Source: a virus
Taxonomy: Duplodnaviria > Heunggongvirae > Uroviricota > Caudoviricetes
Reading direction: 5' to 3' (one strand)
DNA length: 45,749 nucleotides
Virus record (IMG/VR): IMGVR_UViG_2534681762_000010
The notes beneath the pieces are model-generated. The model was not told where the DNA came from. It worked only from the letters and a program-made list of their open reading frames with translations, and made no database searches. Numbering within the stretch: position 1 is the stretch's first letter; each line of letters begins with the position of its first letter. This document shows, piece by piece, positions 29,884-44,122 of the stretch. The translations under genes and the position numbers were made by a program.

Positions 29884-30154
29884 AATGTTACCGTAATATG
29901 TGAGTATCCATCGACTAGACACTAAGCAAAAAAGCTCCCGAAGGAGCCTTCATTTTCACTTTCTTAAATCTAACGACAGATGGCTAACATTTAAGTATTG
30001 TGAAATATTATCAAATGTAATCATCATTGATTTACAAAAGATACATTTTGCCCCGAAAGGATTTCTGTCAGAAACATCAAAAGATGATGTTCTATACTGA
30101 GAACCATGGCAACACGGGCATCTGAAGTGAATATGGTTTGTAATATTTTCTACC

Positions 30155-30367
30155 TCAAAGTGCCACTACATGAACAGCTGCAGGGCCTTTAGGTCCGTTC
30201 TCAATACCAAATTCGACTTCCTGATTCTCAGTTAACGTTTTGAAATCGTTGCTCTGAATAGCTGAGAAATGCACAAACACATCTTTGCTACCATCTTTCG
30301 GCGTGATGAAACCAAAACCTTTTTCAGGGTTAAACCATTTCACTAAACCAGTCATTTTGTTAGACAT
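30155..30367 (-). CDS. cspI: cold-shock protein (CspI/CspB-like)
   Basis: [23 protein letters not shown]... with RNP motifs; long AT-rich 5' UTR upstream. Confidence 0.75.
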
Positions 30368-30730
30368 CATTATTACCTTTTGAAGAAGTTAGCCCTTGGG
30401 CAGAATGGTCCGAAAAAAAATATCAGAGAGAAAAACCAACAAGGAAATCTCAAGAGGTACAAATAATAAAATTATAACAATGACTGCTTCAGATAATTTT
30501 GTAACAAACCAGAACACCATTAACGCATGATTAACCAACCATAGCAAGGATTACTTTTGTAAAGAAAAACACACGAATGAAACAATAGCTTTATTTATTA
30601 ATAAAACGTGTCATTCTGTCTAATGACCTTTTATCTTACCCTTAAGATTTCAAGGATTTTGACTCATGGAAGAGTCCTTTTTATTTAAATTTCACATTCA
30701 GCGCTAAAAATAATCCGATTTAATATTAAT

Positions 30731-32070: not shown

Positions 32071-32286
32071 TTACTCTCCTCTCGCAGCCTTACGCCTGTC
32101 TTCTTTAATCTTGAAATAAAGATTTGTCAGGTACGTCAGCAGGCCAAATACCAGGCTACCCAGCACACCTATTGCTGCCCACTGTGAGGGCGTGACTTTA
32201 TCGAGCAGCTGTAAAAACCAGTAGCCAGCACTGCCTGCGGAGGTGCCGTAGGCAATGCCTGTTGAAATTTTGTCCATGGATTTCAT
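32071..32286 (-). CDS. class II holin / pinholin (S21 family) with dual start
   Basis: [26 protein letters not shown]... two TM helices; GGAGG SD 7 nt upstream of ATG 32286. Confidence 0.8.
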
Positions 32287-32385: not shown

Positions 32386-32412
32386 AATATAAAAAGCTCG
32401 CCGTAGCGAGCT
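32386..32412 (-). terminator. putative intrinsic terminator ending the lipoprotein moron
   Basis: AGCTCGC-cgta-GCGAGCT hairpin followed by TTTTTAT on minus strand. Confidence 0.5.
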
Positions 32413-32537
32413 AATAAAATGTATTTCTCTGATATTATGTTTATTTGTATTAGCTCAGACTTGACATCACAGGTTTCGTATATAGAACATCATCAAATCT
32501 GTCAGTTTGCTATGAATGAGATATAGTAATTGAAGAG

Positions 32538-32933
32538 CTAACCTCGCATGTCAAAGCCAGATTTCTGAAAATCTCTGTAGACTTCCGGATTGTTGAAGGC
32601 CGGAAATTTGGCTTTATGAGCTGCGGACTTTATCGCTTCGCAATAGGCTTTATCACCGTTACTGGTAGATATTTTTAACGCCGTGCCATCCTGAGAGAAT
32701 TCCATATGCAACCTGCATTTTTTCCCTTTCCAGTTATGCGGCTCATCAAGTTTGGCATTAATTGCAGCTCTGATTCCCCGCGCTTGCGCCCCCCATTCAT
32801 CCTGATCATCCCAGCGTCCTGAACTGCAACTACCTGTAGCAGTAGTTTTGTGGCAATCTGAAGGGTGTAAAGGTGTGCATCCCGCAACAAAACCGACCCA
32901 AAAAGTCAACATAACGATTTTCTTTAATCCCAC
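32538..32933 (-). CDS. outer-membrane lipoprotein with diverged TolA-domain-III-like C-terminus (paralog 2)
   Basis: GTG start with GAGGAG SD; signal peptide and lipobox VAGC; C-terminus KKCRLHMEFSQDGTALKIS...CEAIKSAAHKAKFPAFNNPEVYRDFQKSGFD. Confidence 0.7.
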   Translation of the reverse strand: MGLKKIVMLTFWVGFVAGCTPLHPSDCHKTTATGSCSSGRWDDQDEWGAQARGIRAAINAKLDEPHNWKGKKCRLHMEFSQDGTALKISTSNGDKAYCEAIKSAAHKAKFPAFNNPEVYRDFQKSGFDMRG

Positions 32934-33083
32934 TTCTTGCTCCTCAATCCATTAAAATCTCAGCAATAGTAGTTGTTACGTCCGCCACTGGCTCAGAGCT
33001 GACTATCCGCTAAATTTAGCTCAGTGCCGTAGTTGTGTCAGAACAAACCTAAGCCGAAACCGTTTATTACAAAACAATAAATA

Positions 33084-33512
33084 TCAGGGTTTAAAATCCA
33101 GCACCCCATTTTGAAATACTTTATATACTTCCGGCGAAGGGGGGGCAGGTATATCAGCATTCTTTATCGCATTCATCGCTTCACGACATAAATCGAGGTC
33201 TCCACTTTCTCTTTTAACCTCCAGTAGAAGGCCATTCGGGGCCATATGCATTCTCAGTGTACACTCTTTTCCTGAATACTTACTCGCATCCCCGAACTGT
33301 TTTTCGATGGCGCTCTTGATTTGATGGGCATACAGACGGATATCCTCACTAACATCAGAAGTACGTTCAGATGAACTCACATACTGTGTCTCTATTGCTT
33401 TATCGGAGTAATATGATGTACGGTCATGATAATTTGTCGATACAGCATCACTGCACCCGATAATAATCCCACTAATAATCAACGTAAGAATTGATGCGCT
33501 ACGAAAACCCAT
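33084..33512 (-). CDS. outer-membrane lipoprotein with TolA-domain-III-like C-terminus (paralog 1)
   Basis: lipobox IIGC; C-terminus QIKSAIEKQFGDASKYSGKECTLRMHMAPNGLLLEVKRESGDLDLCREAMNAIKNADIPAPPSPEVYKVFQNGVLDFKP closely parallels the E. coli TolA C-terminal domain. Confidence 0.8.
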   Translation of the reverse strand: MGFRSASILTLIISGIIIGCSDAVSTNYHDRTSYYSDKAIETQYVSSSERTSDVSEDIRLYAHQIKSAIEKQFGDASKYSGKECTLRMHMAPNGLLLEVKRESGDLDLCREAMNAIKNADIPAPPSPEVYKVFQNGVLDFKP

Positions 33513-33541
33513 TTTTCCTCACATATGTCATATAGTAAAGG

Positions 33542-33571
33542 ATTATATATACCGTTGTTTTGGACGCTCAA
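33542..33571 (-). promoter_or_regulatory. candidate sigma70 promoter for the lipoprotein pair
   Basis: minus-strand TTGAGC - 18 bp - TATAAT about 25 nt upstream of the GAGGA SD. Confidence 0.4.
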
Positions 33572-34045
33572 ACAGCGAATCAGATCAAATAAAACGCACA
33601 TTTGTTAACATTTACACAAAGTCTGCGTGGGATATTCTGAAAGAATATCCATAATGTGGAGAGAATCTATTGAAGTGCATGGTGCCGGGTGCCTCCCGGT
33701 GAATTCAGTACCAGCACCTGAATCCGCGATTATCCCATATACCTACTCGCTGATTGCCCCTCCGCACAGGGGGATTCACCATGCCAGTTTCTTTTAACAA
33801 ACTCCCCGCAAACCAGAGAACAGTCAACCGCCTGAATTGTGAAGTATTTAAAAATTTCTCCCGCTAACTGATACCCGGCTAACAGTCTGGCGTTTTCTTT
33901 TTCAGCAACGGGAAAGCAACAACCACCACACCCGCCACCAGCACACCGTCAGCCAGCACTGACATTATCCGGCTGCTGCAATGCCATTCACAAAAACAGT
34001 AAGCAATCACTTTTTACCGTAACAGGTGATAATCCAGATATGTAT

Positions 34046-34399
34046 CTACCCCAGATGAGTAATCCGAAGTTCATCCATACCACAGGTCCTGGCTATTCTG
34101 TTGTACTCCTGAACAAGAGCAAATAATTCTGAATTAGCAACCATGAACTCATCGCAAACCCTCTGTATAGCATCACTATTCAGAATAATAACGTCTCTTC
34201 CCGAAAGACGATCAGGAGCACAGAACAAAACTGTCAAACGGCTGAAGGCCTTTGCTCGTGCTGCATTGACTATATCAATACGCTGCCTAAGGATGAAACA
34301 CCCCGACGCCTCATCAATATTCACTCTACCCACACCATATGAATGATAAATATTTAATGCTGAAAAAACCATTAGACCGTATAACAAACACTCAATCAA
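34046..34399 (-). CDS. hypothetical protein (weak translation signals, possibly non-functional)
   Basis: 117-codon ORF with TTG start, first ATG at 34372 without SD. Confidence 0.3.
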   Translation of the reverse strand: MIECLLYGLMVFSALNIYHSYGVGRVNIDEASGCFILRQRIDIVNAARAKAFSRLTVLFCAPDRLSGRDVIILNSDAIQRVCDEFMVANSELFALVQEYNRIARTCGMDELRITHLG

Positions 34400-34509: not shown

Positions 34510-34586
34510 TGGCGCGCTGTACTGGATTCGAACCAGTGACCGATTGCTTAGAAGGCAATTGCTCTGTCCGGCTGAGCTAACAACGC
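34510..34586 (-). tRNA. tRNA-Arg (anticodon UCU)
   Basis: GCGTTGTTAGCTCAGCCGGACAGAGCAATTGCCTTCTAAGCAATCGGTCACTGGTTCGAATCCAGTACAGCGCGCCA folds as cloverleaf; anticodon loop CTTCTAA; 3' CCA encoded. Confidence 0.9.
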
Positions 34587-34686
34587 TGAATACCGATAAT
34601 GGACCGCCATCGGGGACCCGCCCCCGCACCAACAACCCTGTTATCGTGTCGTCTGCTCTTCCTGATAAGCTAATGGCGGTTTGTGA

Positions 34687-34762
34687 TGGTGGCCCTTGCT
34701 GGATTTGAACCAGCGACCTGGCGATTATGAGTCGCTCGCTCTCACCACTGAGCTAAAGGGCC
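34687..34762 (-). tRNA. tRNA with anticodon CAU, most like tRNA-Ile2 (lysidine type; ileX/ileZ-like), alternatively tRNA-Met
   Basis: GGCCCTTTAGCTCAGTGGTGAGAGCGAGCGACTCATAATCGCCAGGTCGCTGGTTCAAATCCAGCAAGGGCCACCA; close to E. coli ileX. Confidence 0.9.
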
Positions 34763-34905: not shown

Positions 34906-35727
34906 TTACCAAGTTACCTTTTTTAACTGCCGCTCAGCCCATGCTTCTTCAATATCAAACCGGGTCACCAGCGCATCATAGAATTTCTTAACTGTTTTTT
35001 CCCATGACGCGCGTGTTATCTGGTTTGTCACCTCGCATATAGCATTAAATGCCTCCGTTGATGGTAGTCTTTCATAGCCACGACCACCACAACGCTGGCA
35101 GTCTCTGATAACAGGCATACCACGTTTTACCGACTCTTCACGGTGAATGGCGACACCACGCCCACGGCAATCCTTACAGGCGGTGGAAACCTCACCCTTT
35201 CCGCCACACTCCGGACAGGCAACTTTTACCACCTCCCTGACTTTTTTCCATTCTTCCCAGTAAGACGGATACACACCTTTCGTACACTTTGCCCATACCG
35301 GCGGCTTACCATCCGGATACTGGACCTTGTTTGTAAAAACTACGCTTTCAATAAATTTTTCCCCATCGCAACAAGGGCACTGCTTTTTACTCGCTGCGCT
35401 GCGGGCATAATCCTCAAAAGCGTACGAAGCCATAATGCGCATCACTACCGGTTTTATTTCTGCCGGAAGTTTTCTCAACGCCGCCACACGATCGCACCGA
35501 CTGAGTGCATAATCTGCCAGTAATTCTGTTGCCCGCGCCCTGTCATTCATACTGATGCCCATTTTCCCCAGGAACGCAGAAAACCCCATCTCAGCCCGAT
35601 TCTGTGTCATGCCCTGCGCGGCCATCACATCAGTGATACTCAGCGCATCTTTTGACGTTGAAGCCGATGCATCGGTCAGGCAAGGGGATTTTGGGGAGTA
35701 GTATTTCGGTAAATCTTCCAGTTTCAT
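34906..35727 (-). CDS. late antiterminator Q (zinc-finger type with four CxxCxGxG repeats)
   Basis: 273 aa; position between rusA and pR'/late genes; CPCCDGEK, CPECGGKG, CKDCRGRG, CQRCGGRG. Confidence 0.75.
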   Translation of the reverse strand: MKLEDLPKYYSPKSPCLTDASASTSKDALSITDVMAAQGMTQNRAEMGFSAFLGKMGISMNDRARATELLADYALSRCDRVAALRKLPAEIKPVVMRIMASYAFEDYARSAASKKQCPCCDGEKFIESVVFTNKVQYPDGKPPVWAKCTKGVYPSYWEEWKKVREVVKVACPECGGKGEVSTACKDCRGRGVAIHREESVKRGMPVIRDCQRCGGRGYERLPSTEAFNAICEVTNQITRASWEKTVKKFYDALVTRFDIEEAWAERQLKKVTW

Positions 35728-37898: not shown

Positions 37899-38054
37899 TT
37901 ACTCCTCAGGTTCGTAGACTGTGAAGACAGCGACCTCCGTCTGGCCGGTTCGGATTCGTACCTCGCAGAGGTCTTTCCTCGTTACCAGTGCCGTCACTAT
38001 GACGGTTAAACAGATGACGATCAGGGCGATTAACATCGCCTTTTGCTGCTTCAT
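37899..38054 (-). CDS. hokD: Hok-family type I toxin (HokD/RelF-like); in-frame upstream extension to 38111 is mok-like
   Basis: MKQQKAMLIALIVICLTVIVTALVTRKDLCEVRIRTGQTEVAVFTVYEPEE; AAGGAG SD. Confidence 0.85.
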   Translation of the reverse strand: MKQQKAMLIALIVICLTVIVTALVTRKDLCEVRIRTGQTEVAVFTVYEPEE

Positions 38055-38640
38055 AGCCTGCTTCTCCTTGCCTTTCGGCACGTAAGAGGCTAACCTAGAT
38101 TTGCCGTTCATAGATTGAGCCTCAGATTAATGTTAAGCGTCTTGCAGGACGCGTAATGTTAACTGGGGCTTTTCTCTATCTGCCTTTGGTGTTCATGCCT
38201 GAGACAGATAGCCTCAAGCACCCGCAGCCATTCTACTTAACTCCCGTCACCTGGCCAATATAAAATCAATCAGAAAGGCGATCCATAAGAACAACAGCAA
38301 GACAATAAATTGCCATTACAGCTGCAATAGCCAGCGCACATTTGAGAACCAGCACGACAACCTCCTGTATTGGACGTACACCAGTCCTGATAAATATGAG
38401 GCTCTCTCATCATTGATGAGATACAACTATTGGGTATAGTTTCTGTGATTTTGTTCTGTAGAAATGGAACACAACAACCAGTAACCACCAGCGATTCTTT
38501 AAATACGCCAAATCCGACGCAAGCTAACCTTCTAGTCCGCTTTGGGCGAAGACCGGACGTTCGATAGGTGTGAACTAGTAACTTTAAAAACATTTAATTA
38601 CCAGTAAAAAAACAAGAATATACTATCACTTTTCCAATTT

Positions 38641-44069: not shown

Positions 44070-44122
44070 TTTCTGGTGACGTTTGGCGGTATCAGTTTTA
44101 CTCCGTGACTGCTCTGCCGCCC
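44070..44122 (+). ncRNA. dicF: DicF small RNA (ftsZ translation inhibitor)
   Basis: TTTCTGGTGACGTTTGGCGGTATCAGTTTTACTCCGTGACTGCTCTGCCGCCC followed by TTTTT, matching the 53-nt DicF sequence as I recall it; located just upstream of dicB as in Qin. Confidence 0.7.

Follow-up and report, generated by a model that had tools for sequence, protein, structure and literature searches.

What does a lambdoid prophage of E. coli do with stand-alone copies of the C-terminal domain of the host protein TolA? The question is raised by the 45,749-nucleotide IMG/VR viral record IMGVR_UViG_2534681762_000010 (Duplodnaviria; Heunggongvirae; Uroviricota; Caudoviricetes), referred to below in its full length as the window, in which two adjacent minus-strand genes, here called A and B, encode lipoprotein precursors ending in a domain of this kind. 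Domain III of TolA (TolA III) is a hub that is hijacked by group A colicins and by Ff, If1 and CTXφ-type phages, and at which the Tol motor grips TolB, stabilising the outer membrane. Our preferred reading is that proteins A and B may act by mimicry of this periplasmic co-receptor and so confer tolerance to Tol-dependent bacteriocins and filamentous phages. On the sequence evidence described here we give this reading a probability of roughly 0.45.

The similarity of the two C-terminal domains to TolA III was assessed by profile, sequence and structure searches. Against the Pfam family TolA_C (PF06519, gathering threshold 25 bits) protein A scored 82.6 bits (E-value 2.4e-23) and protein B 54.6 bits (1.3e-14). 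A phmmer search of the PDB sequences found E. coli TolA III at 5e-28 with A and at 5e-9 with B. In ungapped comparison with TolA residues 334-421, A is identical at 52 of 88 positions (59%) and B at 27 of 88 (31%), and the disulfide cysteine pair of TolA (C363-C388) is kept in both proteins. The AlphaFold2 models have predicted local distance difference test values above 90 over residues 55-142 of A and 46-131 of B, and low confidence in the N-terminal segments. When the models were compared with the PDB by Foldseek, the top match was TolA III in both cases: 2x9a_B for protein A (root-mean-square deviation, rmsd, 0.6 Å; template modelling score 0.94) and 3qdp for protein B (1.1 Å; 0.92). TonB-type domains ranked far behind in both lists. 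The TolA-III homology of A and B is far beyond chance. The initial annotation of this DNA, made from the letters alone, had proposed a parallel to TolA's C-terminal domain, and the profile search and the superposition of the predicted structures both agree with it.

The remainder of TolA has no counterpart in the two proteins. Lipoprotein signal peptides stand in the place of the N-terminal transmembrane anchor (domain I), the Ala/Lys/Glu-rich helical domain II is missing, and 26-34 residues separate the lipid-carrying Cys from domain III. Because membrane anchor and domain II are missing, coupling to the TolQR motor and force transmission are not possible for either protein. The genes also lie outside the ybgC-tolQRA-tolB-pal-cpoB operon, between the phage Q gene with the adjoining tRNA genes and the holin gene. 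Matches to the NCBIfam TolA models are limited to profile positions 293-386 (A) and 304-382 (B) of 387. Both proteins stay under the cutoff of 213 bits of the TolA equivalog model NF007065 (A 107.9, B 53.7). With the second equivalog model, TIGR02794 (cutoff 59.45), B scores 47.2 and A 75.6, the latter by a C-terminal match only; PGAP gives gene A the name 'tolA' because this score exceeds the cutoff.

In RefSeq/PGAP the proteins are named 'cell envelope integrity TolA C-terminal domain-containing protein' or 'tolA', and in PHROGs they belong to phrog_5772, function unknown. The RefSeq labels are inconsistent: gene A is 'tolA' in strain 55989, but strain 1EC213, in which the cassette matches the window letter for letter, has it as a partial pseudogene 'missing N-terminus'. 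A RefSeq label of 'tolA' or tolA pseudogene for gene A needs mending. The homology of A and B to TolA is thus already in the databases; new is the architecture, a lipoprotein with a TolA III domain, mobile, and present as two types in tandem. The initial annotation knew of no characterised prophage TolA-III decoy. We found none either in searches of open-access full text and of PADLOC, but the homology itself had already been recorded.

The pseudogene call leads to the simplest alternative, namely that the genes are debris: tolA fragments captured by illegitimate recombination, carried passively and non-functional. Truncated and frameshifted copies of A in the protein collection would fit this explanation as well. 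However, both ORFs (open reading frames) are intact; each has a Shine-Dalgarno site of its own and a lipoprotein signal peptide, a feature absent from tolA. Conservation across genera is strong, and the pair is at least 99% identical in 775 complete genomes. In the frameshifted database variants of A the last approximately 18 residues, the β3 strand among them, are replaced. Gene A contains a C7 homopolymer at 33141-33147 (codons for PAPPSP), which is unchanged in 79 of 80 related IMG/VR loci, the loci being the retrieved subset of the 154 IMG/VR viral contigs that contain the cassette. On account of this constancy phase variation at the C7 tract was rejected, and the frameshifted variants are probably sequencing errors or rare mutants. 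With both ORFs and the tract preserved, passive debris is a very improbable explanation.

Proteins A and B share 28% identity in pairwise comparison. They are members of two subfamilies with different distributions and not recent duplicates, so that 'paralogous', the word used initially, overstates their kinship. The two lipoprotein ORFs themselves, with lipoboxes IIGC and VAGC and Ser/Thr at the +2 position, were found on the minus strand where they had been placed. The start assigned to gene B in RefSeq is an ATG seven codons downstream of the GTG considered here, which cuts off the basic Lys-Lys n-region of the signal peptide.

Both N-termini fit the lipobox pattern that we applied, [LVI][ASTVI][GAS]C behind a basic n-region and a hydrophobic h-region. 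In protein A the signal (MGFRSASILTLIISGIIIGC) has a short basic and hydrophobic N-region and the lipobox IIGC followed by SD; in protein B (MGLKKIVMLTFWVGFVAGC) a region of the same character precedes the lipobox VAGC followed by TP. Almost all full-length relatives carry a lipobox. At +2, A has Ser where Thr prevails among the relatives, B has Thr where Ala prevails, and neither has Asp. According to the sorting rule of E. coli, Asp at +2 is the Lol avoidance signal and lipoproteins with Ser or Thr at this position go to the outer membrane. An outer-membrane location is predicted for A and B because their +2 residue is Ser or Thr, not Asp. Judged from these signals, both proteins are probably lipidated and located in the outer membrane.

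Stand-alone TolA-III lipoproteins form a sizeable family, more distant short members included. The contig of one distant lipoprotein relative, with a length of only 1.2 kb, gave no useful gene context. An exhaustive HMMER search of 1.84 billion representative proteins yielded 130 relatives; of the short ones (100-170 residues) 54 of 70 have a lipobox, and many short relatives end in the TolA-like motif LDF[KR][PL]. The 1,235-bp cassette was found at a minimum of 99% identity in 775 of 5,426 complete E. coli genomes (about 14%), and A and B occur together in all 80 retrieved viral contigs. Among 50,697 GenBank phage records only one, mEp460_ev081, has the cassette. The A subfamily (46 clusters) is restricted to E. 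coli and Shigella, and the B subfamily (370 clusters) extends across Citrobacter, Enterobacter, Serratia, Klebsiella and Raoultella.

Outside prophages B-type genes were found in two settings. In Enterobacter, Citrobacter and Serratia, genes of 78-89% identity are single-gene inserts at differing chromosomal sites. In Enterobacter a glutathione peroxidase gene lies on one side and ridA/tetR-like genes on the other, in Citrobacter arsRBC is the neighbour, and in Serratia the insert is flanked by nrdDG and by a pair of GmrSD_N and HEPN genes. The surroundings in Serratia marcescens, where the B-type gene lies beside the GmrSD_N (DUF262) and HEPN genes between nrdDG and an arsenic permease gene, resemble a small defence islet. 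The second setting is plasmids, about 600 of which have a copy that is about 87% identical in DNA to B over exactly the ORF. On the EHEC virulence plasmid pO157 (pEDL933-1) the gene is located between toxB and a hok/psiA/psiB/ssb leading-region remnant; we found no paper discussing this pO157 gene. On the IncK2/Z plasmid pSH287-2 it shares its strand with the relaxase gene nikB and comes immediately behind it, in an insert of about 1.3 kb between nikB and trbC, and it may be co-transcribed with the oriT operon. The IncI1 plasmid R64 has no B-type gene between nikB and trbC, the junction being empty. The gene was therefore rejected as a core component of the IncI transfer region and is variable cargo. 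IncI-type pili are the receptors of the TolA-dependent phage If1.

The B type is therefore not phage-specific and not a prophage invention, and the initial picture of a prophage-specific device does not survive the comparison: the type stands alone in other Enterobacterales chromosomes and on plasmids. This occurrence in chromosomes and plasmids points to a role in growing cells rather than to one in lysis only, and immunity or exclusion genes typically show such a scatter over mobile elements. Two A alleles that are 65% identical overall are nearly invariant in the TolA domain, and the mean column conservation of the B family (121 sequences) is 0.92-0.95. We count this strong conservation, which indicates purifying selection, in favour of co-receptor mimicry.

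Which ligands could such a domain bind? The g3p N1 domain (g3p-N1) of filamentous phages, colicin N (ColN) and the N-terminus of TolB bind the β3 strand of TolA by β-addition, and the replacements D418P or K420P abolish binding (PMC4339652). Colicin A (ColA) binds the other face of TolA III, at strand 375-380, LLDIKP (PMC3365938). In protein A the β3 strand reads LDFKP, identical to TolA 417-421, and the strand corresponding to the ColA site, retained for the most part, reads LLEVKR. In protein B β3 is FDMRG, with Asp kept and Lys changed to Arg. The affinity of TolA III is about 1 µM for ColN and g3p-N1 as opposed to about 40 µM for TolB; with this difference a modest amount of decoy could trap the invaders without heavy titration of TolB.

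The mechanism that we envisage for co-receptor mimicry is as follows. In each protein the lipoprotein signal peptide is followed by a tether of 26-34 residues and then by TolA III as a stand-alone domain. A tether in the outer membrane would hang the TolA-III module just beneath the porins, where it could bind ligands headed for TolA itself, namely group A colicins and related bacteriocins by their TolA boxes and g3p by its N1 domain. Invaders would be captured at the outer membrane on leaving the porin or pilus route, and the carrier cell would be tolerant. The cassette is accessory cargo. In the lysogen it would probably be expressed by means of a promoter and terminator of its own, and in lytic growth Q-modified polymerase would read through it in addition. 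The links of this chain that we infer are lipidation with outer-membrane location, lysogen expression, ligand binding and the protective phenotype. Soluble periplasmic TolA III reportedly caused colicin tolerance, slower f1 infection and leakiness in work of Levengood-Freyermuth, Click and Webster from 1993.

Protein B fits this scheme less well than protein A. Residues 20-45 of B (PLHPSxCHKTTATGSCSSGRWDDQDEWG; PLHPSDCHKTTATGSCSSGRWDDQDEWG; window 32796-32876) contain a Cys-x8-Cys pair and an acidic Trp-rich stretch (RWDDQDEW). This segment is conserved like the domain itself (0.95 versus 0.92, 121 sequences), is still present in relatives of only 50-59% identity, and probably forms a second functional element. 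The motif SSGRWDDQDEWG loosely recalls the TolB boxes of colicins (DGSGW...W), a likeness that we regard as tentative; the PDB sequence search gave no significant match to the segment 20-45.

These features of B suggest another possibility: that the domain has been re-used for a different partner, such as an outer-membrane protein, a peptidoglycan enzyme or a pilus or conjugation component, in entry exclusion, envelope stabilisation or a virulence trait, with the Cys-x8-Cys...RWDDQDEW element of B in the new interface. Besides the second element, the distance of B from TolA III (31% identity, with both mapped interaction strands changed), the location of some plasmid copies within regions for transfer, either behind nikB or close to the leading region, and the nature of the fold, a promiscuous β-addition module common to TonB (PMC8928145), would all suit a new partner. 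It is, on the other hand, hard to explain why A should be so near to E. coli TolA III, and exact at β3, unless TolA partners matter; no search pointed to an alternative partner, and the N-terminal motif of B has no significant match in the PDB. A changed partner seems unlikely to us.

The position of the cassette was examined next to its coding content (Table 1). The surroundings are those of a Qin/mEp460-like lambdoid E. coli prophage adjoining rspB/ynfA. Read along the minus strand, Q is followed by the PR'- and tR'-like sites, the tRNA genes, the 117-residue ORF, the DUF3927 gene, the STnc100 small RNA (sRNA), A, B and the holin and lysis genes.

Table 1. Genes and candidate signals of the A/B cassette and its surroundings (window positions; all on the minus strand)
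Feature	Position	Strand	Basis	Remarks
Gene A	33084-33512	minus	ORF	ATG start; lipoprotein precursor of 142 residues
Gene A Shine-Dalgarno site	33520-33516	minus		GAGGA
Gene A product, parts				signal peptide 1-19, Cys20, disordered linker 21-54, TolA domain III 55-142
Gene B	32538-32933	minus	ORF	GTG start; lipoprotein precursor of 131 residues
Gene B Shine-Dalgarno site	32945-32940	minus		GAGGAG, six bases ahead of GTG
Gene B product, parts				signal peptide 1-18, Cys19, conserved Cys-containing motif 20-45, TolA domain III 46-131
Sigma-70 promoter-like site	33571-33542	minus	consensus scan, 10/12	TTGAGC-18 nt-TATAAT; upstream of gene A
Intrinsic-terminator-like hairpin	32412-32395	minus	consensus scan	AGCTCGC-TACG-GCGAGCT + TTTTTAT; between gene B and holin
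Antiterminator Q	34906-35727	minus	ORF; RefSeq annotation of identical DNA	
PR'-like site	34900-34873	minus	read by eye	TTGATT-16-TGgTAAATT
tR'-like terminator	34825-34806	minus	terminator scan	about 80 nt past Q
tRNA-Met/Ile2(CAT) and tRNA-Arg(TCT)	34510-34762	minus	ARAGORN; Rfam tRNA	
117-residue ORF, unannotated	34046-34399	minus		TTG start; RefSeq has here only a partial pseudogene on the opposite strand
DUF3927 membrane peptide	33879-34010	minus	ORF	43 residues
STnc100-family prophage sRNA	33623-33813	minus	Rfam RF02076	114 bits, gathering score 47
essD-type holin	32071-32286	minus	ORF; RefSeq	first gene of the lysis cassette; DUF1327, lysozyme and Rz/Rz1 come next

The location between the block of Q and tRNA genes and the holin gene, as initially described, holds. 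By analogy with lambdoid architecture the PR'-like site is taken, by inference, as the late promoter. As the cassette lies between Q and the holin gene, Q-modified polymerase should read through it, and on into the lysis genes, in lytic growth. The Q-to-holin interval is a cargo slot, in which Stx phages have stxAB. In K-12 DLP12 the place between Q and essD is taken by nmpC; homology of DLP12 to the window starts only at the ribosome-binding site of the holin gene. A divergent A allele, the one of 65% overall identity, stands alone in other prophages, where the order is Q-TfpB-AraC-A-terminators-nanS-p-DUF1378-DUF826-holin, the late-region layout of Stx phages. The comparison with the stxAB position, already drawn in the first reading of this DNA, is borne out by this allele and by nmpC. 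In the divergent-allele prophages the interval from Q to A contains further accessory cargo, a TfpB-family gene and a gene for an AraC/HTH_18 regulator.

The term moron, by which the cassette was first described, applies in part. The cassette genes are absent at the same position in the related phage DLP12, as is expected of a moron, and terminators lie directly downstream of the divergent A allele, which we count for this anatomy. The shift in base composition, which we count likewise, is modest (G+C content 0.36-0.48 in the cassette, 0.45-0.52 in the flanks). The promoter-like sites do not stand out in number: the region contains 11, against 7.1±2.5 in shuffled sequences. As for an own sigma-70 promoter and terminator, both sites are present and flank the pair, and among the 80 related loci, which are near-identical overall, the promoter-like site is exact in 74 and the terminator-like hairpin in 73; being consensus matches, they are candidate signals. 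Promoter conservation between the divergent A alleles was considered and set aside as uninformative, the upstream regions not being homologous.

Several other elements of the prophage were recorded. The STnc100 match ends about 50 nucleotides upstream of the promoter-like site of gene A. According to a 2026 preprint STnc100 is related to PasD, a group of sRNAs from the late regions of Stx phages. A sequence block similar to the STnc100 region (…ggaggcacccgg…) is found downstream of the divergent A allele in another prophage. Elsewhere in the window Rfam detected the 5' untranslated region of a cspA-type thermoregulator (30094-30525, minus strand) at a cold-shock gene that the prophage has downstream of its lysis cassette, sok antitoxin RNA at the hokD locus (38049-38223, minus strand) and the DicF sRNA in the immunity/dicB region (44071-44122, plus strand).

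The neighbourhood of the lysis genes brings in a further explanation, in which A and B would be modulators of the Tol-Pal system. A tethered TolA III would bind the N-terminus of TolB, or else CpoB or Pal, in competition with TolA; TolB-Pal would not be dissociated, the outer membrane would loosen, bleb and shed vesicles, and bulk late expression would help envelope breakdown or the release of virions or cargo. Periplasmic TolA III has been used for inducing vesiculation. The location within the late operon directly upstream of the holin gene agrees with such a role, and protein A keeps the strand that binds TolB (PMC4339652). Loss of the TolA-TolB contact results in a full tol phenotype with leakage (PMC4339652), and tol-pal mutants hypervesiculate (PMC7391070). 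The lysis set of the phage is, however, already complete, Rz/Rz1 included. B-type genes occur in chromosomes and plasmids without any lysis context, so the family is tolerated, and presumably useful, in growing cells; the affinity between TolA and TolB is weak, about 40 µM; and the terminator-like hairpin between B and the holin gene together with the promoter-like site would suggest independent expression. Modulation of Tol-Pal thus appears improbable as the main role, to about the same degree as a changed partner.

A number of observations weigh against co-receptor mimicry, and we list them together. The promoter is no more than a consensus match, of a kind that turns up frequently in an AT-rich region such as this one, and upstream of the divergent A allele the DNA lacks homology and shows no promoter-like site of similar quality in that place. 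The site directly upstream of the holin gene, within the Q-dependent transcript, would be just as suitable for late or lytic action. Protein B is changed at both known TolA interaction strands (ALKIST, FDMRG), and its conserved N-terminal motif is unexplained by a decoy, though it fits none of the models cleanly. A TolA-III module that binds TolB could be costly to the host and might cause a tol phenotype. A search with PADLOC (PADLOC-DB 2.0) gave no defence family at E ≤ 1 for A or B.

The literature was also searched. No functional characterisation of A- or B-type proteins was found in open-access full text, where absence is not proof. Among the passages that term searches returned from an evolutionary survey of TolA/TonB transducers and from the main Tol-Pal review there was no phage-, prophage- or plasmid-borne TolA-domain protein. 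A 'TolA' gene with 32-fold ciprofloxacin induction in EDL933 (PMC11125564) was dropped from consideration, the supplement annotating it as a tail-fibre protein.

Co-receptor mimicry can be extended beyond the prophage. Tethered TolA-III copies on prophages, on conjugative and virulence plasmids including pO157 and in chromosomal islets could represent a widespread, unrecognised class of envelope immunity, which would protect enterobacteria by mimicking a periplasmic co-receptor; a close mimic of host TolA (A) and a diverged version with an extra motif (B) would broaden the range of ligands. We offer this generalisation tentatively, and hold it to be less probable than the tolerance function of the two proteins themselves. 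About 14% of complete E. coli genomes have a natural, mobile copy of the TolA hub with a predicted lipid anchor, and such copies also occur on pO157- and IncK-type plasmids and in other Enterobacterales. If the decoy function is true, bacteriocins would be tolerated and phages excluded by a new mechanism, in which a co-receptor is mimicked and not a receptor blocked; such a decoy would bear on colicin- and phage-based antimicrobials and on the use of M13-based tools in wild strains, and would provide a ready-made probe for TolA-TolB force transduction. If instead the proteins perturb Tol-Pal, they would matter for the release of vesicles and toxins by lysogens.

The closest known relative of the two domains is domain III of E. 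coli TolA (residues about 314-421; PDB 1TOL, 1S62, 2X9A, 3QDP/3QDR). A and B have the same fold (rmsd 0.6-1.1 Å), the disulfide pair and the same order of secondary structure elements, and A, at 59% identity, keeps the LDFKP strand that is used by g3p, ColN and TolB. Unlike TolA, they have no transmembrane helix, no domain II and no tol-pal operon; they have a predicted lipid anchor, presumably in the outer and not in the inner membrane, would not transduce force, and are encoded on prophages, plasmids and chromosomal islets. In proposed action they resemble laboratory constructs that export soluble TolA III or g3p-N1, which likewise place a free competitor of native TolA in the periplasm. The effects reported for such constructs are colicin tolerance, less Ff infection and leakiness or vesiculation of the outer membrane; the case of exported g3p-N1 is described in PMC10424213. 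Those constructs are overexpressed, soluble and artificial, whereas A and B are natural, predicted to be lipid-tethered, come in two divergent versions and have candidate regulatory signals of their own. As small accessory lipoproteins of mobile elements with a proposed protective action at the envelope, A and B can also be compared with Llp of T5, Cor of φ80/N15, TraT and Bor/Iss; DLP12 has borD, and Bor lies beside the lysis cassette in lambdoid phages. None of these has sequence or fold kinship with A or B, and the mechanism would differ: Llp and Cor block the outer-membrane receptor FhuA, whereas A and B are proposed to mimic a periplasmic co-receptor. In their location, finally, A and B share the Q-to-S slot, with late read-through and possible independent expression, with stxAB, nmpC/lc porin, nanS-p and the PasD/STnc100 sRNAs, whose products are unrelated to A and B.

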